64,000 bases of DNA from an uncultured Pseudomonadota bacterium (GTDB lineage: Bacteria; Bdellovibrionota_B; Oligoflexia; Oligoflexales; CAIMVM01): contig CAIMVM010000073.1 of assembly GCA_903844895.1 (NCBI GenBank), forward strand, positions 42,230-106,229, read 5' to 3'. The stretch's first letter is position 1. The number at the start of each line of letters is the position of its first letter. Below the pieces are notes generated by a model, which ran no database searches, had not been told where the DNA came from, and saw only the letters and a program-made list of their open reading frames with translations. Shown here one piece after another: positions 1-43,511 of the stretch. The position numbers and the translations under genes were made by a program.

Positions 1-38
1 TTTAGTACCTCTTCAAAAGCCGCATAAGGTTTGAAAAT

Positions 39-1430
39 ATGAACACAGTAAACTTATCTGATGATGACCTTAGATTTCGTGTCCACCGTGAGGGAGAAGT
101 GGTTCGCTTTTTTGGATGCATCGGCGATACGCCGGACCTTGCCGCACTGGATGGTGTCCTTACCGACAAATCAGTTTGTGACCTGAGCAATCTCAGCTTT
201 GCATCCTGGATCGGACTAGCTACACTTGGCTCCTACATCTCTGGCAAAAAATTTCACTTAGTCTTCCAGGCAGTACCTTTTAAAATTTATGATTCCATGC
301 GGATGATGAAGACATTTGAAGAGCAAGAAATCAAAAATGCAATTGCGCCACTCCTCGATGCCAATACAAACAAAGTAAATTTTAAATTGATTGAATTTGA
401 TCCTCTGCGCGAGGCAGCTATGTCGGGCGAAGATTGGGTAGAGACTACGCCAGGTCAAAAATTGTTGGTACCAGCGCGATACCTTTTTCCTGATCTTCGT
501 ATGCAACGCGAAGGGGGCCCCATCCTCTTAAAAGTTCAGCATCCTCAAAAAGATATTGCAAGTTTCTGGATACAGTATGCGGCCTATTGCAATACCACTG
601 TTGAAATCAGCAGCGTGCTCGTGTACGCCGCCAAATTCAATATTATGCAAATTCTGGGTGAGATCAAATCGAAGATGGCGTCAGGAGAAGCAGCACTTAA
701 ACTTATTGACCCCAAAAATTCCTATACGTTGGTTCAACGCATGGAGAACATGATCAAGAACATTGAGAGCAGCTTTGATACCCTTGCCCGAAAGGTACAG
801 ACGCAACACGACGCAAGCCTAAAAACATATGCTGAATTGACTTCTCAATCGACTACCTCTGACATCGATGGCTCAACCTTCACGGCAGCGATGGCTGCCT
901 ATGCCACTTCCATTACCGAGATGGTTCATGTAGCAGCTGGCTGCGAGGACTGCGGAAGCGCCATAGGCGAACAACTTGGGTCCCTTCGAGCGACGCAGGT
1001 ACTTAAAAACGGCATGTCAACGTTTACAAATCCATCTCCAGAAATGCTCACCGCGATCCGTGATGCTTTCGCTATTATGGATATCATGTCTGAAGACGAC
1101 TGGATGGCAACGCGGGTCATCATCATGGACGAGATTGAACACATCGAGGGCCTCATAGGACGCTGTATCGTTACTTTGCAAGGGTTTGACATGATGCGTC
1201 AGATACTGGAACACCGCATTCAAGAGATGTTGTTAGTAACTGAGCTCTTCAAAGCCAATGGTGCTGATTCCCTCTTAGATCCAGATGTGAAAGAACAAGT
1301 ACTTGGTAAAATCGGCGCCCACATGGTGACCGAACAAGAGAAGGTTGCGTTTGAGTTCTATCTTCCGGACGGATTCGCGAGATTTGCGCAAACGGACCGT
1401 AAAGAGCCGGGTGATGTTCTATTGTTCTGA
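39..1430 (+). CDS. Hypothetical signalling protein: N-terminal STAS/anti-anti-sigma-like domain plus C-terminal helical CheZ/chemoreceptor-like region
   Basis: 463-aa ORF. N-terminus (VVRFFGCIGD...VCDLSNLSFASWIGL) resembles STAS. C-terminal LQGFDMMRQILEH resembles the CheZ-type DxxxQ motif. Ends in GDVLLF. Confidence 0.55.
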   Translation: MNTVNLSDDDLRFRVHREGEVVRFFGCIGDTPDLAALDGVLTDKSVCDLSNLSFASWIGLATLGSYISGKKFHLVFQAVPFKIYDSMRMMKTFEEQEIKNAIAPLLDANTNKVNFKLIEFDPLREAAMSGEDWVETTPGQKLLVPARYLFPDLRMQREGGPILLKVQHPQKDIASFWIQYAAYCNTTVEISSVLVYAAKFNIMQILGEIKSKMASGEAALKLIDPKNSYTLVQRMENMIKNIESSFDTLARKVQTQHDASLKTYAELTSQSTTSDIDGSTFTAAMAAYATSITEMVHVAAGCEDCGSAIGEQLGSLRATQVLKNGMSTFTNPSPEMLTAIRDAFAIMDIMSEDDWMATRVIIMDEIEHIEGLIGRCIVTLQGFDMMRQILEHRIQEMLLVTELFKANGADSLLDPDVKEQVLGKIGAHMVTEQEKVAFEFYLPDGFARFAQTDRKEPGDVLLF

Positions 1431-33138: not shown

Positions 33139-34122
33139 TTGCCGGTGATTACAATTTTAGCAGTTGAAGTGCGCGAAGCTTCTCCCGTTCTAGATCAAAA
33201 TAGATTGATGGTGGGGTGCTTTGGTAGTGAGTTTATTTTTGTTCAGTCAACGGAAGAAGCACTACACATTCTTAACACTCGAACGATTGATGTCTTGCTG
33301 GTGAATAGTCCCATCTATAGTCTTTATAGGTGCGCCAAGGATAAATCAAAAGGCTTGAAAACGATCCTCTATAGCAATATTACCATGGAAGAATACGCTG
33401 CCGAGCTCGATGGAGAACAAACGGAGCTTTTAGATCACTTTGTATTTTGCCGCAATGACAATAGGTTTTCTCAGTTAGAGTTGCTAACTACACTTCAAAA
33501 ATTGATTCGCTCTGATATCTTTGGGCTAGAAAAGTACTTGGAAGCCGGTTACGCCATGGAATCCTTTCCTATTGTTGGCACTGCTAGCCGCGATATCCTA
33601 GCCTTAGAAGTTGAAAACTTTTGTCGCAAGGCCTATTTGAGCGCCAATGCTACCAGAAGAGCTAAGGCAATTGTGGAAGAGCTGCTTATGAACGCCATCT
33701 ACGATGCTCCCGTGGCTGCTGGCCTTACGGCATATGAAGATAAGCGCAGCGACAGCTTTACATTGGAAGTCAATGAACAGAGCGTTTTGAAGTTAGGATG
33801 CGATAGCGAAGTGCTTCTTATTAGTGTGCGGGATCCTTTTGGGGCTTTTAAACGAGAAAAATTCTATGAATACGCCTCAAAAATACTCCTGCGAACCGAC
33901 AATGAGCGCCTTGTAGACACAAAGAGTGGCGGGGCTGGACTTGGGATTTTTAAAATGCTTTACGATTCTCAAGGTCTTATTGTCAATATTTGGCCTGGTA
34001 CTGCCACTGAAGTCCTCGCAATAATAGAACTTAATACCAAAAGCCAGTCCTTTTCAAAAGCTGGCCGGTCTCTGCACTATTTTATGCAAACCACCCCACC
34101 TATCGAAGTGGCGATCAAATAA
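33139..34122 (+). CDS. Degenerate receiver-like domain plus RsbW-like HATPase domain protein
   Basis: EEALHIL...IDVLLVN (receiver-like); EELLMNAIYDAP (N box), ISVRDPFG (G1), GAGLGIF (G2). Confidence 0.65.
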   Translation: MPVITILAVEVREASPVLDQNRLMVGCFGSEFIFVQSTEEALHILNTRTIDVLLVNSPIYSLYRCAKDKSKGLKTILYSNITMEEYAAELDGEQTELLDHFVFCRNDNRFSQLELLTTLQKLIRSDIFGLEKYLEAGYAMESFPIVGTASRDILALEVENFCRKAYLSANATRRAKAIVEELLMNAIYDAPVAAGLTAYEDKRSDSFTLEVNEQSVLKLGCDSEVLLISVRDPFGAFKREKFYEYASKILLRTDNERLVDTKSGGAGLGIFKMLYDSQGLIVNIWPGTATEVLAIIELNTKSQSFSKAGRSLHYFMQTTPPIEVAIK

Positions 34123-34211
34123 TCACCTTTCGACCCATGACATAATCCCAGAATTAGTCTAGATTGATGGGTCTATTGCCATTAATGATACATTATTGAG
34201 GAGACAGCATA

Positions 34212-35444
34212 GTGGGAAAGATTAAAGTAGCAAACCCCGTAGTAGAAATGGACGGGGATGAAATGACCAGAATCATATGGGATATGATTAAAAAGCAACT
34301 TGTGCTTCCTTATCTAGATATAGACATTAAATATTTTGACCTGAGTATTGAAAACCGCGACAAGACTGACGACAAGGTGACTGTGGAAGCGGCTGAAGCT
34401 ATTAAAAAATATGACGTGGGCATAAAATGCGCCACCATTACTCCCGACGAAGATCGAGTCAAAGAGTTTCAACTAAAGAAAATGTGGAAAAGCCCAAACG
34501 GGACCATTCGAAATATCCTTGGCGGCACCGTATTTAGAGAGCCCATCATCTGTAACAACATTCCCCGCCTTGTGAAAAACTGGAATCTCCCGATCGTAGT
34601 GGGTCGTCATGCCCACGCAGATCAGTATAAGTGTCAGGATTTTATAGTTCCCGGCAGCGGCACCTTGAAAATGGTTTTTGAAGGTAACGATGGCGCCAAA
34701 AAGGAATGGGAAGTTAATAAATTTGATGGCCCAGGAATAGGCATGGGGATGTTTAATACCGATGAATCCATCTATGGCTTTGCTCGCAGTTGTTTTGCCT
34801 ACGCCATTGACAGAAAGTATCCTCTTTATCTGTCAACTAAGAACACCATTCTTAAAGCTTACGACGGAAGGTTTAGAGATATTTTTGCTGAAGTTTTTGC
34901 CACAGAATACGCAGCCAGTTTTAAGCAACTAGGTCTCACTTATGAGCACCGTTTGATTGACGACATGGTGGCTCAAGTACTTAAATGGGAAGGCGGCATT
35001 GTCTGGGCATGTAAAAACTATGACGGTGATGTCCAATCAGATATCGTGGCTCAAGGTTTTGGTTCACTTGGATTGATGACCTCAGTTTTAATGTGTCCCA
35101 ATGGCCGTACCATTGAAACGGAAGCCGCTCATGGAACCGTTACCCGTCACTACAGACAACACCAAAAAGGCATGAAGACTTCTACCAATCCTATCGCTTC
35201 GATATTTGCTTGGACCAAAGGTCTATCCCATCGAGGAAAGCTTGACAACACACCCGACGTTGTTAGGTTTGCTGAAACCTTAGAAAAAGTCTGCGTTGAG
35301 TCCGTAGAAGCTGGCATACTTACTAAAGATCTCGCGATCTGCCAGTTCGGTGAAAAAGTAACGGATGACAAGTATCTCAACACAGATGCTTTTATGGCAA
35401 AGATTGCGAGCAATCTTGAAAAAGCCATGGGCAGCTGGAAATAG
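34212..35444 (+). CDS. icd: NADP-dependent isocitrate dehydrogenase (eukaryote-like type II)
   Basis: [49 protein letters not shown]. Confidence 0.97.
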
Positions 35445-35481
35445 AGAATATGTCGTTCCGAAAATGTCGCTTAGACGAAAT

Positions 35482-35518
35482 AAGCTGGTCTTTTTTAAAA
35501 AGAAAAGGACCAGCTTTT
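35482..35518. terminator. Intrinsic terminator between convergent icd and thioredoxin genes
   Basis: AAGCTGGTC(TTTT)...(AAAAG)GACCAGCTT followed by TT. Confidence 0.7.
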
Positions 35519-35558
35519 CGTTTGATGAAGACTTCTAGTTGTCGCGTTTTAAGAATGA

Positions 35559-35891
35559 TTAGAGTGATTCTGGCTTAGGCCCAAAGTTCGACTCCAGAAA
35601 ATCTTCTAAATTCTTTATTCCTTTAAACCCTTCTAATTTTCCTGCAAGTCTATGCTGGTGGAATGCAAAAAAAACGGGAAGGATCTCTGTACCTGCAATT
35701 TCTAGCATTTCAGGATAGTCACTTATACATATCTGCCCAAAGACGACTTCTTTTGACCAAGTCGCTTCAAGTCGAGTGACTGCAGGTTCAGACATTTTGC
35801 AGGGCCCACAGCCTTTCTTCCATAACTTTAGAAAAACTTTGCTATTTTGAACCAAAGAGGCTTCTAAGGTTTTCGGATCAAATTCAATCAT
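35559..35891 (-). CDS. Thioredoxin family protein
   Basis: 110 aa with WKKGCGPCK motif and ILP cis-Pro loop. Confidence 0.85.
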   Translation of the reverse strand: MIEFDPKTLEASLVQNSKVFLKLWKKGCGPCKMSEPAVTRLEATWSKEVVFGQICISDYPEMLEIAGTEILPVFFAFHQHRLAGKLEGFKGIKNLEDFLESNFGPKPESL

Positions 35892-36675
35892 TGCTATCTC
35901 CCATTAAAGGCTTTACCGGTTGAAGGTATCACTTACGTCTCTAAACTACTATATGTCCCACTAGCGCGTCTTTGTTTAATTGATTTGGCTAAAAAACAGC
36001 GTTTATAGAGGAGTTAAGCCACTTATCTAAAAAGTGCTTTTTGCCCAACGCTTATATGTATTCCCATCACGGGGCTAATGAGATGTGTTTCGTAGGGAGG
36101 GGTAGCCGAACAAAAACGAATTTGACTGTTTTTTGCACTCCGCGGGGACGCTTCCTTAATAAAAACTCACCGCACATAAGGTCCGCCGAATTCCTCCGGA
36201 ACCATCGGCAATGGATAAACGTGGGCCTGGCAGAGCATTGTCTAAAGCCTAAGTTCATGCGCTGGACGGCAGTATTTTCTAGTTCGGGCCACCTGAAAGA
36301 CCGAAAAATTCGGCTTTCATCGGTTTTAAACAACATGCGAACTACACTTAACCCAAAAAGCTGCGAATCTAATTGGTTTTAGGGAAAAGAAAATATTATC
36401 GAAGATATACAATTTCTCTGCGACGAAGCCACTTCCTATGTCACATAGCCAATCTCGTCGGGATCAAAGGAAACAATTTGGAATTGCAAAAAAAATGCTG
36501 TTTTGTAAGAAGACAGCTTCTAAAAAGGCCCGTAGAAAATGGCATCCACCGACAGATCAAATAGATGTCTACCCTCATAGAGACAAAAACTCCCATTAAC
36601 CGCAGACTATGGCACCATTCATAAATTAAATGGTGGACCCAAAAAGAATCATTTTTTCAATCTTGATCAAACTGC

Positions 36676-36709
36676 TAGTTCCTAATAGATAGTTCCTAAT
36701 AGATAGTTC
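36676..36709. repeat. 14-bp tandem repeat (TAGTTCCTAATAGA)x~2.4
   Basis: Two perfect units plus TAGTTC. Confidence 0.8.
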
Positions 36710-37212
36710 GGAGCGGAACAGGCGAGGAGGGAGTATCTACAGATGGGACATATCGCATTAGGGAAGAAGGAGTCTGTCTAGTCAATCTCTGAAGAATCCC
36801 AAAACCCGGAGGTGAAAGTCTACTTCGAAAGATACCTGCCAAAGAACTAACAGAACACGCAGAATTCTTTCGAAGAATTTAGGAACTTAAGATCTATATA
36901 CTAAGTTTAAAAAGTCACGACACTAAACTTAAAAGCAACTACGCAAAGAACTTTTAGGCACTGTCTGATTCGACCGCCTCGCCCAGACCCATTGGAAACG
37001 TATGGCTGAGTTTTGTAAAGAATGATCGCATGGACCAGACAATATGAACTCCCACAGGACTTCTGCCATCTGTCCTCGAACGCAAGTTATTCTAACGCAA
37101 CGCAGAACCGCGAACCTTCTTCTAACAAAGGAATTATAAGTGAAAAACATCCCTCAGCTGGCGCTAAACTCCTCCTAACTAGTGCGATCATTTCTAGCCC
37201 GACCTCAAGCGG

Positions 37213-37347
37213 TCTGTTTCATGTCTTCTGTTTCATGTCTTCTGTTTCATGTCTTCTGTTTCATGTCTTCTGTTTCATGTCTTCTGTTTCATGTCTTCTG
37301 TTTCATGTCTTCTGTTTCATGTCTTCTGTTTCATGTCTTCTGTTTCA
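37213..37347. repeat. 14-bp tandem repeat (TCTGTTTCATGTCT)x9.6
   Basis: Nine perfect units plus TCTGTTTCA. Degenerate TCAAGC(G/C)GTCTG occurs at both ends. Confidence 0.97.
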
Positions 37348-37455
37348 AGCCGTCTGAGTCATTCAGACAAAGCATTGAAGCGATTGGAAATGAATGCGAG
37401 TGGTCTTGGATTCTTTAATTTCTTGTTTATGTGATTTTTCCATGTTGGAGTATTT

Positions 37456-38124
37456 GTGATGTATCGAGTCCCTATTGTGACAATTTTTCTTTTTTCCTCT
37501 TTTTGTGCCTGTGGCGAATTTCGCGCTACAACCTCTACTCGCGTCGATGGATCTGTCAACGAACCAACGGAGTCTTTAACTAGGGTTGAGACAGCAAAGC
37601 CTTTAGTCTTAGTGAACGGCGAAACATTCACCGTTACGCTTCCTGACGACCCAAGTATTCAAACCCAAATGTTGGACTATGAAGGTAATAGGCAGCTCCT
37701 TGTTGCGATTCAGGACGCCAGTTCCAATAAAGAGTCAAACATCTGGATGGCACTAAAACCATGCAACCTTAAGCGCGAGAACGTCGATGCTTTCCAAGAT
37801 TCTCTTAATGCCTTTACACATTCATTTTTAGATGAAGGTCAAACAAATGGAGGGTTTAAACTTCTTGTTAACAATATCGACTACGCAATTCAGCGTGTAT
37901 CGATGACCGCAAAACCCCAATCGCTATTCGGATACTCGTTTGACTATGTGCGCACTTATCATCGCGAGAGAATGGAACGAATCGCAATTCTCGCCGACTT
38001 TGAACAACAGCGCGATATCTGTGCGCGTATAAAAGTCTTTGTTCCAGAACACAAGCCAATTACACCAACATCTCTAACTGGCAAAACGTTAGTTGCGATT
38101 CAAAAATCATTTCAATTTAAATAG
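37456..38124 (+). CDS. Hypothetical probable lipoprotein, first gene of the Hint/MACPF operon
   Basis: 222 aa, GGAG RBS, hydrophobic N-terminus ending FCAC-G. Confidence 0.65.
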   Translation: MMYRVPIVTIFLFSSFCACGEFRATTSTRVDGSVNEPTESLTRVETAKPLVLVNGETFTVTLPDDPSIQTQMLDYEGNRQLLVAIQDASSNKESNIWMALKPCNLKRENVDAFQDSLNAFTHSFLDEGQTNGGFKLLVNNIDYAIQRVSMTAKPQSLFGYSFDYVRTYHRERMERIAILADFEQQRDICARIKVFVPEHKPITPTSLTGKTLVAIQKSFQFK

Positions 38125-38145
38125 TCACAATAGGAGCATTAAACT

Positions 38146-39006
38146 ATGAAGATATATCTATTACTGCTGTGTTCGTTTCTAGTGCCTCATTCTTTCGCAT
38201 TGGCCACCGAATACACTTTTTGCGCTGATACCGTGGCCTACTCTGATCCAGGCCTTACCGCCAGAGATCCAGGAAAAGACTGGATTTGTGGTTTGACACC
38301 AGATGCATCTGGGGCGCGCTGCCCCTCTGCGCAAACTCGAGCATGTCAAGGCGGAACTCTACCAGGCCCTCATGACGTTCCAAACGGCGGTATCGCGTGG
38401 TTTTGGGCACAGTCTGCGAATGCTAGCCAGGACGTAAAATGTACCTGCGGTTGCTTCATTCCACACACTCTGATATTGACAGAAAACGGAGAAAACACGA
38501 TTTTCGAGACACTTGAAGCAGCAAAGTATCAAAATGTTCGAGTGAAGGTCCGTCAAAGCTTAAAAAACTTTGGTGAACTCAGAGACAGCAGCCCATTGCG
38601 AGCCAAACACTTTCGAGTGGGAGCAGAGAATAAAGCGCTCGTAAAACTTAGTTTGTCCAACGGACGAGCCCTTGAAATTACAGAAAAGCATCCAGTCCTC
38701 GTTCTGCGTAAAAATCGTCAGCAGATGCTACAAGCCCACTTCGTAAGAGAAAGCGACGTGCTCCTTGATGAACAAGGCAACGAAGTAGCTATTGTGTCAA
38801 TCGAAAGTAAGCAACTTCCAGAAGACTCTAACACCGTGATCAACTTTGCATCAGACGAAGAGAATCCTCTAGCACACCTCATTGTGGCTGAAGGAGTTCA
38901 GGTTGGAGACAACCGTTGGCAGGCCGCTTTAGAGGTTATTAAGTCTAGAGTAGATATACGAAATTCACAGGAACTGTCATATCTCGACGAGATTGTTGGC
39001 AACTAA
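38146..39006 (+). CDS. Secreted Cys-rich protein fused to a Hint (Hedgehog/BIL-type) autoprocessing domain
   Basis: Signal peptide (…SFALA), 6-Cys domain, G|CFIPHTLI (block A), LEITEKHPV (block B TxxH), VINF...HLIVAEGVQVGD (block F/G-like without terminal His-Asn). Confidence 0.82.
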   Translation: MKIYLLLLCSFLVPHSFALATEYTFCADTVAYSDPGLTARDPGKDWICGLTPDASGARCPSAQTRACQGGTLPGPHDVPNGGIAWFWAQSANASQDVKCTCGCFIPHTLILTENGENTIFETLEAAKYQNVRVKVRQSLKNFGELRDSSPLRAKHFRVGAENKALVKLSLSNGRALEITEKHPVLVLRKNRQQMLQAHFVRESDVLLDEQGNEVAIVSIESKQLPEDSNTVINFASDEENPLAHLIVAEGVQVGDNRWQAALEVIKSRVDIRNSQELSYLDEIVGN

Positions 39007-39022
39007 AAACTAAGGGGGTTTC

Positions 39023-39769
39023 ATGCGCACCAAATTTATCATTTCAATTGGACTTAGCGTTTTTTTAGCAGCTCTTATGTATTTCGTCTGGACCAGGAGT
39101 CATGCATCAAAAGTTATTGAAGCCTCAAATAAACGCATGGAAGTCCCGGCAAAGTTGACGGGAGCAGCGGGAGAAACTGGGTCAACGGGAACAAGGGGAA
39201 AGTCCCCGTTCGCTTTGCCTGTGGTAGTTACTCCCGTCACTCTACCAAGCCAAGGGCTGCACGCCTCGCAAGAGAAGACTGCAGTAATGCAAGCAGCTCT
39301 TATTCTTAAAGGAGGAAATATGCTAGATGCCGCTGCCCATCGTGAAGCAGTACAAACACTTAGTCATTATGGAGATAACGCATTGGTTATTATGCTAGAC
39401 GAACTAAAAGAAGGTAACCGCGCTCTCGATGACAAAAGTCTGCGTCAACGCATGGCTCTTATTGACATCCTTGGCCTGGCAGCTGAAACGAAACCATTTG
39501 TTCGCGACGAACTCAAGCGATTTTCTATGGCTCCCTTACTTTATAAAAAAGATAAGAGCATGATGCATAAAGACTTTATTGATAGATTAGAGACGTTTGA
39601 ATATGTCTCTCGGAACGACAAGGATACAGCTCTCCATTATATTAAGACACTTTCAAATCGAAAAATTCAATTAGAGTATTCAAAACACTACGTCGTAGGT
39701 CAAAAAATGAAAGGCCGAAGTGAGGACGATGCTGTTCTCGACCTGCTTCATTTCCTAAAAAAAACATAA
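39023..39769 (+). CDS. Membrane-anchored helical (HEAT-like) hypothetical protein
   Basis: Single N-terminal TM, low-complexity linker, all-helical C-terminal domain. Confidence 0.7.
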   Translation: MRTKFIISIGLSVFLAALMYFVWTRSHASKVIEASNKRMEVPAKLTGAAGETGSTGTRGKSPFALPVVVTPVTLPSQGLHASQEKTAVMQAALILKGGNMLDAAAHREAVQTLSHYGDNALVIMLDELKEGNRALDDKSLRQRMALIDILGLAAETKPFVRDELKRFSMAPLLYKKDKSMMHKDFIDRLETFEYVSRNDKDTALHYIKTLSNRKIQLEYSKHYVVGQKMKGRSEDDAVLDLLHFLKKT

Positions 39770-39782
39770 CGAGGTTATAATT

Positions 39783-41402
39783 ATGAAAGCACTTAGTTTT
39801 GCACTTCTTTCAACCGTTACTTATACAGCAATTGGTTGTTCAAGCAAGTTGTCTGAAAAACAACCATCTAAAGTTGATTCTATTATTGCACCACAGCTTG
39901 GCATGACTCTTGGTCGAGGATACGATCCAACTCACCCCAATGAACCAAAGGGAGACTGCATCGCCAACGTTAATGATGCCAAAACTGAAAGCTGGAATGA
40001 TGCTACAGGTATCGTTGGCTCTCTGACGGAAACAAGAATTCGCTCATGGGAGCAAATGCAAAGCGAGCTTTCGTTAACTGCCAATGCCGCGGCAGAAAGC
40101 TTATGGGGAAACGCGAATGCATCATTTTCAAAATTTGAAAAATTTCGCAGCGACGAAAACTCATTTACCTGGCTTGCCAAATTTGTTGTTGAATCTGGCG
40201 AAAAAACCCTCGACGGATCAAAAGCAATTCTTACCGTCGCTGCGCAAAACTTGCTGAATGCGAATCGTTTATCCGATTTTTACAAGATGTGCGGCACGGA
40301 GTACATTCGTTCCATTAAACTTGGAGGTCGAATTGTCGTCGCAAACGAGGTTAGCTCTCAATACAAAGACATAGTTAAAAGTATAACTGCAACGGTTGGA
40401 GGCAAAGCTACGTTTGGTGGTTTTGGATTTGCAGGATCAGCGGCCTTTTCTTCGTATTTTAATGATGCATTTTTCAAGAGTGTTCTTACGCGTGAAATTG
40501 ACCAAATTGGTGGAAGCGCGATAGACATCACACAATTAAGCCCTGATAACTTTTCGGCCTACCTAAATAGGTTTCAAAACGAGTTAAAGAATCTCAGGCA
40601 GGGCAAGGTTATTCAGATTGAAACTGCAAGTTGGGATACATTGGGGGTTTCAAATCTGGGAGGGTTGGCAGATTGGCACCGGAAGCAGACACTTGATGAA
40701 CTCTACAAAAACTATCGCTTGAATGTAAATTCTCTCAATCGAATATCAGACTTTGGCTTTTGGAAAAGTGAAGGAAAGATAGCAATTGCAGAGGAAACAA
40801 TGAGCTACTTAAATCGCATGAAGTTTCAGATTGAGAAACAAAATACAGCAATTGCTTCGCGAGCAACAAAGTGTATGGAGCTTAATAGTTGTGATGCTTC
40901 AGGATTTGATTACATCACAGTAAAGTTTCCGGCAGTTGAATCCAGTCCATCACAGGCTCGCGAGCAATTTGGCAATCTCAGATTCTCTGTGAGGGAAAAT
41001 GTTTCCAACTTTGGCTCAACGGCTGAATACGATGGTGAGACTGTTCGCTATTATGACATTCCAGTTGTCGAATTAAGTGATTCGAATCTCAAAACTGCTC
41101 GCATCTTGGTTTACGAAACACCTTGCGAAAGTGCAGAATCCTGGATGAAGACAAGTCATGACACGCTTCATGCGCGTGGCGTTCATACTGCTGGAGTCAT
41201 TCAATATGACCATCGTTTAAGAGCCTTAGAAACAAACTGGTTTGACGGGCATCTTTCACGGTTGGTGGTTTTTCAAAAAGGCACCAACGGACTTTGTCCG
41301 ATTCTTAAGGCCACGGCGGATGGCACTGGTGTTACTCGCTGGCTGAATGTGCCAGACTTCGATAGCGTTATACGTGATATCGAGCGCACCCTTCAAAACT
41401 AG
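39783..41402 (+). CDS. Lipoprotein with MACPF/CDC-like pore-forming domain
   Basis: Lipobox AIGC (C19); LGRGYD, FYKMCGTEYIRSIKLGG (MACPF-type GTxY-x6-GG), later QIGG; Gly/Ala/Ser-rich amphipathic segments; coiled coil and C-terminal domain. Confidence 0.72.
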   Translation: MKALSFALLSTVTYTAIGCSSKLSEKQPSKVDSIIAPQLGMTLGRGYDPTHPNEPKGDCIANVNDAKTESWNDATGIVGSLTETRIRSWEQMQSELSLTANAAAESLWGNANASFSKFEKFRSDENSFTWLAKFVVESGEKTLDGSKAILTVAAQNLLNANRLSDFYKMCGTEYIRSIKLGGRIVVANEVSSQYKDIVKSITATVGGKATFGGFGFAGSAAFSSYFNDAFFKSVLTREIDQIGGSAIDITQLSPDNFSAYLNRFQNELKNLRQGKVIQIETASWDTLGVSNLGGLADWHRKQTLDELYKNYRLNVNSLNRISDFGFWKSEGKIAIAEETMSYLNRMKFQIEKQNTAIASRATKCMELNSCDASGFDYITVKFPAVESSPSQAREQFGNLRFSVRENVSNFGSTAEYDGETVRYYDIPVVELSDSNLKTARILVYETPCESAESWMKTSHDTLHARGVHTAGVIQYDHRLRALETNWFDGHLSRLVVFQKGTNGLCPILKATADGTGVTRWLNVPDFDSVIRDIERTLQN

Positions 41403-41868
41403 CGTCGAATCTCCGTCGCTAAGAGCGAGCAGTGCCAAATACCTTAATAAGCTCTTGCAAAATTTTCAGAGAATGCCTTCAAGACCCTAAGGTACCATCC
41501 TTCAATACGATGCGCCTTAGGGCATTTTCAAACCCTAATGTATCACCCGTAGAATGCAGTAATCGCTGTGGAAATTTTAGATATACATTTCCCTGGGGCT
41601 AGTATTGCTTTTTGGCCTAACTCTTTAATAGACAAACTTCTAGCCGATGGGCTGAGGCAGGTTGTAGAAAATTTTCGGATTTGTTTGGGTGAAACACTAG
41701 GCGGGATTGGAGTTCTCTCACGCCTACGGTATATCAATAGCAGCTCAAGACAAAATTTTTGAAAGCTGGAAACGACCGACGTTCTACATCGTTCCCTGCA
41801 AAGAACCTTACCCCAAGACCCAGCCAAGGCTATGCGAGCATTTTGTACGGTTAACAAAATTGAAGTGC

Positions 41869-41911
41869 GAGCAAAAATGAGAGCACAAATGAGAGAGCAC
41901 AAATGAGAGCA
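41869..41911. repeat. 12/14-bp tandem repeat (GAGCACAAATGA)x~3.5
   Basis: gagcaaaaatga gagcacaaatga ga gagcacaaatga gagca. Confidence 0.75.
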
Positions 41912-42200
41912 GGACCCTTTTGGGCAGAGTCGGAAAAATCACCAATATTATTGGCATTTTACACAAAAACCCTGCCTAAAAGGCCCACTTAGGTACGCCC
42001 AATTGGGAGCTTTTGGTTAAACTTCCAACAAACCCATTAACTTCCCCCTAACAATCGGTTATGTTAGCGGTCGTTTGATTCTTGTTTTTCTCGTAACTGG
42101 CTGAATTTAGTGGGATAATGTGCTACTAAAGACGCCTTTAAGAGAATTTACCAACATAGAGAATCTAAAGTTATTCGTGACACCGCTAGGAGACTATTTC

Positions 42201-43511
42201 ATGAGACTAAAATTAGGGACTTTTTTACTTACAACTCTTCTATCCGGCTTTGCGTTCGGGCCTGCGTTTGCTGGCGATAAAGTTATCATTATTTCCCCGC
42301 ATAGAAAATCCATTCAGGAAGAGTTTGTCCCTAAATTTATTGAGTACTATAAAGCTAAGTATAAAGCTGATGTCGAAGTGGAATGGATCGATCAAGGCGG
42401 AACAAGCGACGATATAAGATTCGTATCCTCTAAATTTGCTACCAATCCCAGGTCCTCAGGGATCGATATTTTTTGGGGCGGCGGTGCTAGTGCCTTTGGT
42501 GACTTGGCAAAAAGTACGTTTCTGTCTGAGTACAAACTTTCGGCAGAGCTAAAGAAACAGCTGCCTGAAAAAATAGCCGGTGTTGCGATGTATGATGCTA
42601 CCCAAACCTGGTACGGCTCTGCGGCCAGCTCATTCGGCATATTTACAAATAAGAAGCTTTTAAAGATTCAAAGATCTGAAGCACCTAAAATATGGGCAGA
42701 CCTAGCCAACCCTAGATTCGAAGACCAGATTAGTGCGACAGACCCCAGACACTCCGGCGGGGCTGCTATTATGAATACGATTATTCTGCAAGGCTATGGA
42801 TGGGATAAGGGTTGGGAAATCCTTGGAAACATGGCTGCAAACGTTAGAAAGTTCACTCACTCATCTTCTGACCCTATAAAGGCTGTTGTGAGCGGAGATG
42901 TTTCTCTGGCCCCCACTATTGATTTTTATGCCGCGGCTAAAATAGGTGATCTGGGTTCGGAAAATCTCGGATTTGTGTTGCCTACAGATTTTAGCGTTTT
43001 AGATCCTGATCCTGTGGCCATACTTAAAGGCGCTCCCAATCGAAAAGTAGCTGAGCGGTTTATGGAATTTGTTCTTTCAGCTGATGCTCAAAAACTACTT
43101 GTTCTACCTAAAGGCCAAAGCGGTGGCCCCGTAAAAGACACTCTTGGGCGCATGGCTGTAAATCGAGACACCTACAATCAAGTTCAGCTGAAGTCCATTT
43201 CAGCTAATCCTTTGATGTTCAAAACTAGCTTCACCCTAGATGCCCAAAAAGCCGCAAAGCTTAAAAACATTCTAAATGATCTCATCGGTGCAATTCACAT
43301 TGATATACAAAACGAGCTCAAAAATGCCGTTAAAAACTTACGAAAGAAAGGCGCAAAGCCTGCTGATATTTCTGCTTTGCTTAAGCCACCTATGAGTGAA
43401 AAGGAAGCTTTGGCCTTAGCAGATAAATGGGATGACGATGTGATTCGGAATAAAACCATAAACTCTTGGATTAATGACTATAAGAGTCGCTATATCGCAG
43501 CTTCTAAATAG
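42201..43511 (+). CDS. ABC transporter substrate-binding protein (Fe3+/thiamine/AfuA-like)
   Basis: ATG at 42201 with AGGAG RBS, signal peptide, IISPH, DIFWGGG, DPRHSG, DPVAILKGAPN. Confidence 0.85.
   Translation: MRLKLGTFLLTTLLSGFAFGPAFAGDKVIIISPHRKSIQEEFVPKFIEYYKAKYKADVEVEWIDQGGTSDDIRFVSSKFATNPRSSGIDIFWGGGASAFGDLAKSTFLSEYKLSAELKKQLPEKIAGVAMYDATQTWYGSAASSFGIFTNKKLLKIQRSEAPKIWADLANPRFEDQISATDPRHSGGAAIMNTIILQGYGWDKGWEILGNMAANVRKFTHSSSDPIKAVVSGDVSLAPTIDFYAAAKIGDLGSENLGFVLPTDFSVLDPDPVAILKGAPNRKVAERFMEFVLSADAQKLLVLPKGQSGGPVKDTLGRMAVNRDTYNQVQLKSISANPLMFKTSFTLDAQKAAKLKNILNDLIGAIHIDIQNELKNAVKNLRKKGAKPADISALLKPPMSEKEALALADKWDDDVIRNKTINSWINDYKSRYIAASK

Follow-up and report, generated by a model that had tools for sequence, protein, structure and literature searches.

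We analyzed a 64,000-nucleotide stretch of DNA (hereafter, the window) from contig CAIMVM010000073.1 of an uncultured bacterium assigned to the Oligoflexales, and focused on a forward-strand gene for a putative secreted precursor of 286 residues that would mature by means of its own Hint domain. Hint domains are known from protein splicing in inteins, cholesterol transfer in Hedgehog proteins and toxin release in polymorphic toxins. The role of bacterial Hint domains that close small secreted proteins has been a side-question since they were first noticed about 20 years ago. The gene and the parts of its product are listed below, with column counts taken from an alignment of 104 family members that is described further on.

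38146..39006, forward strand: the Hint gene, an open reading frame (ORF) for the 286-aa precursor plus stop codon, with leader, Cys-rich domain, Hint domain and tail in that order
38146..38205, forward strand: residues 1-20, a leader resembling a Sec-type signal peptide and ending A-L-A, read from the sequence and from a family-wide heuristic
38206..38451, forward strand: residues 21-102, an 82-aa six-Cys N-domain, the predicted mature product, ending C99-T-C101-G102, from the translation and a separate model
38449..38454, forward strand: Gly102-Cys103, the predicted scissile bond and site of an N-S acyl shift, from conservation of the junction and structural alignment to residue 1
38452..38910, forward strand: residues 103-255, the Hint domain, from TIGR01445, Foldseek and VIA-align
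38680..38691, forward strand: T179-E-K-H182, intein block B (Thr B:7, His B:10), from columns with Thr in 92 and Ser in 12, and His in 103 and Tyr in 1, of 104 members
38905..38922, forward strand: G254-D255-N-R-W258-Q259, a family signature that stands in place of the intein His-Asn and starts the tail helix, from column counts
38911..39003, forward strand: residues 256-286, the tail, with predicted helices at 256-274 and 278-285 in the AlphaFold2 model (block pLDDT 81-90)

The gene starts with an ATG at 38146, and a ribosome-binding site (AGGAG, 38132-38136) lies within 8-14 bases upstream. Read by eye, the leader, MKIYLLLLCSFLVPHSFALA followed by TEY, resembles a Sec signal peptide with an A-x-A site, and a crude signal-peptide heuristic (K/R plus an uncharged hydrophobic run) was satisfied in 92 of the 104 family members. 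In the translation, the N-domain has Cys residues at positions 26, 48, 59, 67, 99 and 101, in addition to Cys9 in the leader. The predicted mature N-domain (21-102) would have a mass of 8.49 kDa (about 8487 Da with three disulfides) and an isoelectric point of 4.6, and the Hint-plus-tail fragment a mass of 20.8 kDa, with Cys103 as its single Cys. The junction reads Gly102-Cys103-Phe104; CTCGCF begins at residue 99 and the codon of Cys103 is at 38452-38454. The Hint domain ends V-Q-V-G254-D255 and is followed by 31 residues (256-286). The first-pass annotation of this DNA had described a Hedgehog-like protein and named the six Cys residues, G102-C103-F104, TEKH, VQVGD and a tail of about 30 residues. 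All of these were found where it had placed them, and the Hedgehog-like succession of a signal peptide, a small Cys-rich domain, a G-C-F junction, a Hint domain and a short tail was borne out.

The Hint domain was recognized by profile and by structure. The NCBIfam model TIGR01445 (intein N-terminal region) matched residues 103-186 (E 2.1e-8; 35 bits, cut-off 24.5), and a profile search against the PDB returned the bacterial intein-like (BIL) domain 2lwy (E 3.5e-9) and mini-inteins (E to 1e-8), with Hedgehog 1at0 as a marginal match (E 0.64). An AlphaFold2 model of the full precursor, built on the 104-sequence alignment, had a mean predicted local distance difference test score (pLDDT) of 90.1. 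When this model was searched against the PDB with Foldseek, 65 matches were obtained at E <= 0.001, of which those listed were inteins, BIL domains and the Hedgehog Hint domain, with mini-inteins, the Clostridium thermocellum BIL domain and the Hedgehog Hint domain at the top. Alignment with VIA-align gave Z scores of 17-19 and root-mean-square deviations (rmsd) of 1.7-2.2 Å, and by Z score inteins, BIL domains and Hedgehog were tied. The Hint fold, on which the earlier annotation had let its reading stand or fall, was thus recovered by structure prediction. The aligned range of the model was nearly always 103..255, and paired with 1..440 of the Mtu RecA mini-intein and 1..125 of gp41-1, indicating that Cys103 corresponds to residue 1 of the Hint domain and Asp255 to the last residue of an intein.

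We next describe the active-site columns using the intein block terms B:7, B:10, F:4, G:6 and G:7, as given in the available text of Mills et al. (2014, PMC4031507). After the junction, Phe104 was kept in 99 of the 104 members, Thr or Ser at position 179 in all of them, His182 in 103, Asn233 in 103 and His244 in 99. The stretch His244-x-x-x-Ala248-[Glu/Asn]-Gly250 reads as the end of block F; an alignment of block F to Pho RadA was seen in the profile comparison, and the end point was backed by VIA-align. Gly254 and Asp255 stand at G:6 and G:7, where they replace His-Asn, and the spacing at the end of the family, A-x-G-x-x-x-G-D, parallels the intein C-terminal consensus A-x-G-x-x-x-H-N. The +1 column after Asp255 is variable and non-nucleophilic (Leu 49, Asn 20, Gln 8 and Val 7 of 104), and Asn256 of the window protein is not a conserved residue. 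Because His-Asn is lacking and the +1 residue is of this kind, splicing is excluded, and the inability to splice proposed in the first-pass annotation held. Nor does the domain lie between two halves of a host protein, as an intein would: only 31 residues follow it here, and a median of 19 in the family. The residues expected for thioester formation at Gly102-Cys103, namely Cys1, Thr/Ser179 and His182, are all in place.

A word-indexed search found four relatives only. An exhaustive phmmer search over 1.84 billion representatives returned 261 sequences at E <= 0.001, of which 80 reached E <= 1e-10 and 17 reached E <= 1e-30. Two signature motifs mark the family, C-x-C-G-C-F at the junction and G-D-x-x-W-Q at the end of the Hint domain. 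Counted on 153 retrieved sequences, C-x-C-[GSA]-C-[FYLVIMH] was present in 122 and G-[DSN]-x-x-[WFLYM]-[QE] in 145. The 31 sequences that did not carry the junction motif comprised 10 fragments or unrelated proteins, 20 close variants (C-x-x-G-C-F, x-C-G-C-F, C-R-C-G-C-S) and one protein with G-G-F. Independently of any alignment selection, [GS]-Cys was found at 142 of 143 visible junctions. One of the retrieved sequences, a 1508-aa protein of Corynebacterium glutamicum (P0135), matched query residues 68-160 in six stretches (E 7.5e-8) and carried neither family motif; this is probably a repeat or compositional match.

For the alignment (A2), we took the 104 full-length members with both motifs, 230-340 residues and a Met start. 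The selection patterns demand the C-x-C-[GSA]-C junction and the G-[DSN] end, so these columns are fixed by construction. Within the alignment, the N-part spans 69-161 residues (median 101), the distance from Cys1 to Gly-Asp is 142-157 (median 150) and the tail after Gly-Asp is 16-38 residues long (median 19). The N-part has six Cys residues in 66 members, eight in 18 and four in 8, and an even number (6, 8, 4 or 12) in 93; after Cys1, 103 members have no Cys at all. Position -1 is Gly in 96 members and Ser in 8. Columns kept in at least 90% of members and unforced by the selection are R58, C59, C67, F104, G159, E161, H182, A197, N233, H244 and A248; those of D255 and Q259, largely unforced, are kept to the same degree. 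At the end of the Hint domain, G254 was counted in all 104 members, D255 in 103, Q259 in 103 and W258 in 89, with the Gly, Asp and Gln columns partly fixed by the selection pattern. Pfam models matched weakly: PF07591 (pretoxin HINT) in 41 members (best E 4.3e-8), PF01079 in 13 and Hint_2 (PF13403) in 8 (best E 4.9e-6).

The same Hint subtype, with a G-D-x-x-x-Q end and a tail of 1-23 residues, closes all eight larger proteins examined from the same phylum (482-825 aa; L151-L158). Their N-termini are membrane-anchor or pilin-like, one with a weak N_methyl motif; their junctions read [N/D/Q]-[L/M]-G-C-F and their Hint domains end ..TGDLYLQ... The terminal position of the domain in all eight suggests a portable C-terminal processing module, like the Hog domains of nematodes. 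These eight proteins also match Vint (PF14623), a family described from eukaryotes, once above the cut-off at 34.8 bits.

The first-pass annotation had suggested aligning homologues to see whether the N-domain is polymorphic while the Hint domain and tail are conserved. We found the opposite among 14 close orthologues, in which mean pairwise identity was highest in the N-domain (44.9%), followed by tail residues 256-273 (38.3%), the Hint domain (37.9%) and tail residues 274-286 (20.7%). Over all 104 members, the N-domain was the most diverged region (20.5% vs 27.4% for the Hint domain). By phmmer, the Hint domains recognized each other in 5312 of 5356 pairs and the N-parts in 1282, and the N-parts fell into two linked groups of 57 and 47 members. 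The window protein belongs to the separate class formed by the latter 47, which is linked to the MACPF-like gene described below. Across the alignment Arg58 is nearly invariant, and Cys59 and Cys67 are invariant; since Arg58-Cys59, Cys67 and C-x-C are common to both groups, we regard the N-domains as one diverged fold.

Modeled alone, the N-domain reached a pLDDT of 95.0 and a predicted template modeling score (pTM) of 0.83. Disulfides in this fold probably tie a helix at residues 60-66 to the final strand, which directly precedes the scissile bond. A Foldseek search of the model against the PDB gave no fold match (best E 1.9), a wide VIA-align search gave no chain at Z >= 2 among 48,161, which is no proof of a new fold, and ESM Atlas contained no usable relative. 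A domain that is the best conserved part among orthologues and is confidently modeled by itself is what would be expected of a mature product. Hint-less paralogues of the N-domain adjoin full-length genes in 5 of the 30 loci first compared (L112:6387-6833, reverse strand; L130:4682-5005, forward strand; and L128, L122 and L111). One of them stops right after the -1 Gly (...C-Q-C-G-stop), and the DNA 3' of it holds no remnant of a Hint domain; another ends ...C-R-C-stop. These paralogues fit a mature product that ends at Gly.

The Hint gene is one of four same-strand ORFs that are packed in the window with gaps of 21, 16 and 13 nt. The other three are as follows.

37456..38124, forward strand: a 222-aa upstream ORF, 21 nt 5' of the Hint gene, with no family and no relatives in the other loci
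39023..39769, forward strand: a 248-aa protein (family F3) whose helical body follows an N-terminal membrane anchor, 16 nt 3' of the Hint gene
39783..41402, forward strand: a 539-aa lipoprotein-like protein (..AIGC followed by SS; family F1), putatively MACPF/perforin-like by ESM Atlas and by Pfam and PDB profile matches of its family

To compare operons, neighboring proteins were clustered in 30 loci (the window and 29 others), to which five loci from metagenome-assembled genomes (MAGs) and 17 further loci were added, giving 52. ORF calls in the fetched loci were naive, and the picker fails in high-GC myxobacterial loci, spoiling several of them. In the 30 loci, F1, the family of the 539-aa protein, was found in 15, F2 (about 450-540 aa) in 11, and F3, F4 or F7, all of them membrane-anchored helical proteins, in 26. 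F1 or F2 was present in 25 of these loci; 22 had a partner of each kind, and a single locus had none. The five MAG loci, labeled Pseudobdellovibrionaceae, Bdellovibrionaceae, Bacteriovoracaceae, Bacteriovoracia and 'Myxococcota', all have the order Hint-(F4)-F2-F1. Most of the 17 loci, which come from myxobacteria, Pseudoalteromonas, a Saccharospirillaceae genome and an Oligoflexales MAG, have the order Hint-F4-F2, with F2 in 13 and F4 in 13. Over the 52 loci, F1 or F2 was found in 43, one of F3, F4 and F7 in 42, both in 37, and F1 in 20. By hhalign, F3 is a homologue of F7 (probability 97.3%, E 1.8e-11); the 248-aa neighbor aligned with F7 at only 55% probability, and its placement in F3 is by phmmer single linkage at E <= 1e-4. 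No other pair of partner families reached 50% in hhalign, F4 being unlinked to F3 and F7 and F1 to F2, and alignment A5 matched an F4 member at 2.6% probability.

We called F1 MACPF-like on three grounds. In ESM Atlas, MACPF features scored 0.90-0.95, with TM scores of 0.45-0.55 to MACPF clusters; Pfam MACPF (PF01823) matched 5 of 19 F1 members (best E 5.8e-5), the 539-aa protein of the window not being among them; and the F1 profile matched 9uj0 'Aeg-L' best in the PDB (E 4.6e-5), followed by Mpf2Ba1 (E 0.28). By these comparisons, the 539-aa neighbor looks like a divergent pore-former of the MACPF/perforin type. The two F1 subgroups that stand beside orthologues of the window gene are related (hhalign 97%, E 8.4e-11). 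F2, which accompanies the Hint gene in Bdellovibrionota, myxobacteria and Pseudoalteromonas, is exported, and its alignment A9 (L117:4538-5938 plus 12 relatives) contains invariant columns of His, Ser, Asp and Cys. We considered F2 as a degenerate subtilase on account of its D...H...S-like motifs, but this gained no support, as no Pfam, PDB or NCBIfam match was obtained. Scans of the Pfam, NCBIfam and PADLOC libraries gave none of the partner families a name. A further family, F9 (L127:7103-7651), is a small exported protein that lies 3' of the MACPF-like gene in four loci and ends ...GDCGC.

The DNA upstream of the operon has features of its own. About 110 nt 5' of the first ORF, a perfect 14-nt tandem repeat, TCTGTTTCATGTCT, occupies 37213-37347 with 9.6 copies and 100% matches; it is intergenic, and its period is not a multiple of three. 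This repeat could be a slippage-prone element that shifts promoter spacing and hence causes phase variation. A second, short 14-nt repeat lies at 36676-36709. The roughly 2 kb that separate the operon from the isocitrate dehydrogenase gene (35445-37455) contain no ORF of at least 200 aa, and no Rfam family was found in 34000-43000. The G+C fraction is even, 0.41-0.46 over 33-43 kb, so that nothing points to recent insertion. The sequencing runs listed for the sequence were lake and freshwater metagenome runs, with no RNA among them.

The source genome is Oligoflexales-like, its RpoD being 92% identical to that of a MAG labeled 'Oligoflexales bacterium'. The family is widespread in the phylum-level group of the window, where 92 of 131 genomes gave Hint matches at E <= 1e-8, many of them more than one and the richest 13. 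Members were found in Pigmentibacter ruber, Fluviispira vulneris, F. multicolorata, Oligoflexia and Pseudobdellovibrionaceae MAGs and Archangium gephyra, and those with names have no annotation beyond 'Hint domain-containing protein' or 'hypothetical protein'. A DNA search added Cystobacter fuscus, Hyalangium versicolor, two Corallococcus species, Myxococcus dinghuensis, eight Pseudoalteromonas genomes and one genome of the Saccharospirillaceae, which we take to be the family holding Reinekea. Full members from these taxa and from Archangium carry C-K-C-G-C-F and G-D-L-x-W-Q. In five of these genomes, the A2 profile gave E values of 1e-65 to 1e-73 and 2 to 11 Hint matches each, with 11 in Cystobacter fuscus; it gave no match in any of five genomes comprising two Polyangiaceae, one Nannocystaceae, one Pseudobacteriovorax and one Silvanigrellaceae MAG. 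Among 251 genomes sampled around one Polyangiaceae genome, there were 10 weak partial Hint matches, none with the family plan. Given the strong members in Archangium, Cystobacter, Hyalangium, Corallococcus and Myxococcus, this result reflects a sampling miss rather than absence. The one of these 10 weak matches that was inspected, a Myxococcota lipoprotein (L140:1201-2298, forward strand), has a different, BIL- or pretoxin-like arrangement: its Hint domain retains His-Asn, and a Cys-rich domain forms the C-terminus after it.

From the conserved sequence features and the models, we propose that the gene encodes a secreted, self-maturing precursor: the Hint domain would cut between Gly102 and Cys103, and the small domain thus freed would act with the partner products outside the cytoplasm. 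We consider this reading as a whole reasonably probable, and the cut at Gly102-Cys103 is likely. As to the fate of the product, we lean slightly toward simple release and regard transfer to an acceptor as unlikely. In the proposed sequence of events, the precursor would be exported by Sec and lose its 20-residue leader, and the 82-residue N-domain would fold around three disulfides. The Hint domain, whose only Cys is Cys103, would then carry out an N-to-S acyl shift at Gly102-Cys103, presumably aided by Thr179 and His182, and the resulting thioester would be resolved, most probably by water. The expected products are an 8.5-kDa disulfide-rich protein ending at Gly102 and a 20.8-kDa Hint-plus-tail fragment. 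The released domain would be the functional product and would act outside the cytoplasm. Its partners there would be the proteins whose genes nearly always accompany the Hint gene, namely a helical protein anchored in the membrane and a larger one that is secreted or a lipoprotein; in this window, the latter would be the MACPF/perforin-like protein. The near-invariant Asp255, which takes the place of the terminal Asn of inteins and should lie beside the scissile bond, might tune the resolution of the thioester along with Trp258 and Gln259, where the tail helix begins; this is speculation.

Several observations weigh against this proposal. The cleavage is deduced from conserved residues and a fold only. 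Position F:4, which is usually Asp in inteins, is Asn233 here, and this Asp takes part in the first step, according to the accessible part of Mills et al. (PMC4031507). Two Pfam models remained below threshold on the window protein, Intein_splicing at 21 bits (cut-off 35.8) and Hint (PF01079) at 16.3 bits (cut-off 29.7). The paralogues that lack a Hint domain may be genes in decay. The added set of 17 loci (myxobacterial, Pseudoalteromonas and related) contains no F1, and the MACPF link is therefore not universal. Finally, simple hydrolysis does not explain the conservation of Asp255, Trp258, Gln259 and the first 17 or so residues of the tail, a gap that a transfer reaction or a role in binding might fill.

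Of the alternatives, the one that survives best concerns the role of the product and fits hydrolysis or transfer chemistry alike. In a toxin-immunity operon, the Cys-rich domain would be an antibacterial or prey toxin, or the targeting subunit of a two-component MACPF pore-former, and F3, F4 or F7 would protect the producer; we hold this possible, and doubtful. The partner in the window is MACPF-like, and the carriers are mostly Bdellovibrionota, myxobacteria and pigmented Pseudoalteromonas, which are predatory or antagonistic groups and often have several copies per genome, up to the 13 Hint matches and the 11 of Cystobacter fuscus noted above. There is also a precedent in the aegerolysins, as in the aegerolysin/pleurotolysin pair, which are small membrane-binding partners of fungal MACPF proteins, and the best PDB match of F1 is named 'Aeg-L'. 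However, the N-domain is conserved among orthologues, unlike polymorphic toxins; scans of the operon gave no PADLOC match and no known toxin or immunity family; and no more than 20 of the 52 loci carry a gene for the MACPF-like F1. The Hint domain also follows its cargo here, whereas the HINT of polymorphic toxins precedes the toxin in the accessible account of these systems (PMC3482391).

A second alternative, which we give a small chance, is Hedgehog-like transfer, in which a lipid, an envelope amine or a partner protein would attack the Gly102 thioester, the N-domain would be tethered through its Gly, and the helix with Asp255, Trp258 and Gln259 would be the acceptor site. In its favor, the architecture and the G-C-F junction are those of Hedgehog and Hog proteins, the Hedgehog Hint domain matches the model structurally as well as inteins do (1at0, Z 17.2, rmsd 2.2 Å, 136 residues aligned), and G-D-x-x-W-Q with about 17 conserved tail residues follows the active site directly. 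The conserved partners are all membrane-anchored or exported. In addition, Glu161 of a G-P-E motif upstream of block B is kept in 97 of 104 members and may fall near the place of the sterol-activating Asp in Hedgehog. The tail is nevertheless unlike a sterol-recognition region: its helix is hydrophilic and amphipathic (mean Kyte-Doolittle -0.66, net charge -1), and it is short. The conserved residues of the tail are W258, Q259, L262, R268 and R272, with 274-286 gapped in most members. By sequence, the Hint domain is nearest to BIL domains and mini-inteins rather than Hedgehog; library scans of the operon recognized no acyltransferase-like or lipid-handling gene; and stand-alone N-domains ending at or near the Gly occur without any Hint domain. 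The suggestions in the first-pass annotation that the N-domain is ligated to a lipid or protein, and that the tail is an adduct-recognition element, thus found no support in a tail so short and hydrophilic and a Hint sequence nearer to BIL domains and mini-inteins.

A bolder combination of these two alternatives is a long shot. In this bacterial counterpart of Hedgehog, the Hint domain would put the C-terminal Gly on a lipid, an envelope component or the MACPF-like or F2 partner, with G-D-x-x-W-Q and the tail helix as the acceptor site, and the tethered domain, of a fold unseen in the PDB, would direct a perforin-like pore-former, making up a new two-component attack system in Bdellovibrionota, myxobacteria and Pseudoalteromonas.

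It is very unlikely that the Hint domain lacks catalytic activity and instead assists folding or binding in an uncleaved 29-kDa periplasmic or surface protein. The sub-threshold Pfam scores, Asn for Asp at F:4, Gly for the penultimate His and one relative (P0132) with G-G-F for G-C-F would fit such a role. Cys1, Thr/Ser179 and His182, however, are kept in essentially all members, with Gly or Ser at -1; a lone Cys retained in an exported domain is hard to explain without chemistry, and Hint-less paralogues of the N-domain occur. Weakest of all is a C-terminal cut in which Asp255 would cyclize and free the 31-residue tail, alone or along with the N-terminal cut: Asp255 does occupy the terminal-Asn position in the Mtu RecA and gp41-1 alignments, it is kept in 103 of 104 members, and a terminal Asp or Gln can cyclize in some inteins according to the available text of PMC4031507, but the penultimate His, which helps cyclization, is Gly in 104 of 104 (a Gly that the selection pattern requires), and tails of which only the first 17 or so residues are conserved, and which shrink to 1-10 residues in larger proteins, are unlike a released signaling peptide, so that we put this at the margin of credibility.

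The gene is thereby placed in a large, uniform family with an end motif of its own, Gly-Asp-x-x-Trp-Gln in place of His-Asn. Also new are the cargo, a conserved small domain without a known fold, and the fact that the gene travels with the same partner genes over three phyla. The carriers include cultured bacteria that are amenable to genetics (Pseudoalteromonas luteoviolacea, Myxococcus, Corallococcus and Fluviispira), which makes the system testable. If the thioester were instead passed to a lipid or protein, this would be the first Hedgehog-style ligation outside eukaryotes.

In the freely accessible literature, we found nothing on these proteins, their operon or a link between Hint and MACPF. 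Searches for 'Hint domain' with Oligoflexia found no paper, those for MACPF with 'Hint domain' only chordate pangenome work, and those for 'Hint domain-containing protein' nothing relevant to these proteins; genome papers on Bdellovibrionota and Spirobacillus did not mention Hint, intein, perforin or pore-forming. The accessible text of a review (PMC7765530) names four Hint types (Hog, intein, BIL-A and BIL-B), and the present type is not listed there.

Compared with the known systems, the precursor would share with pretoxin HINT proteins (PF07591) a secreted, autoproteolytic character. In those proteins, however, the HINT domain stands just before a C-terminal toxin and releases it, as described in the available part of PMC3482391, whereas here the cargo is N-terminal and conserved and the Hint domain is followed by a short helix only. 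B-type BIL domains are alike in having the N-terminal intein motifs without the canonical C-terminal motif, and their N-terminal self-cleavage is reported in the same accessible review text (PMC7765530). We compared them through a proxy only, the Pfam family Hint_2, and the eight members that match it do so weakly. This family we take to represent B-type BIL domains.

A-type BIL domains, of which that of Clostridium thermocellum (2lwy) is the best PDB profile match and aligns over 133 of 138 residues (Z 18.2, rmsd 1.7 Å), are bacterial, found in secreted proteins and self-cleaving. They keep a C-terminal His-Asn according to the review text at hand (PMC7765530), whereas the present family has Gly-Asp, and they lie inside variable regions of larger proteins, whereas the present Hint domain ends a small one.

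Hedgehog and Hog proteins (PDB 1at0, 6tyy) are similar in their signal peptide, secreted N-domain, G-C-F junction, absence of splicing and short post-Hint region, and in the Hint fold itself (Z 17.2-17.3, rmsd 2.2 Å). The use of one Hint type with varied N-terminal cargoes is also a trait of nematode Hog proteins, as the accessible text of PMC2362128 describes them. The present family differs in its bacterial hosts, in a sequence likeness that is marginal (E 0.6, with PF01079 below cut-off) and in a hydrophilic tail of 16-38 residues that does not resemble a sterol-recognition region, and the N-domain was unrelated to the Hedge domain in ESM Atlas, Foldseek and VIA-align searches.

The closest counterpart is a 'novel Hint-like' bacterial group with a C-terminal Hint-like domain that was described by Bürglin (2008, BMC Genomics 9:127, PMC2362128) and is credited there also to Dassa and Pietrokovski. 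In the part of that paper available, signal peptides are noted in at least some members and two conserved Cys residues upstream of the Hint domain, the examples come from Stigmatella, Myxococcus, Reinekea, Photorhabdus, Serratia and Yersinia, and the listed proteins include MXAN_6253 and plu1731; its text gives no motif beyond blocks A and B and no operon, structure or function. The present family shares the C-terminal Hint-like domain, the signal peptide, the two upstream Cys residues and overlapping taxa, and we take it to be the same group or a sister group. Matched by description and taxa only, the family to which the window gene belongs is very probably Bürglin's novel bacterial Hint-like group.

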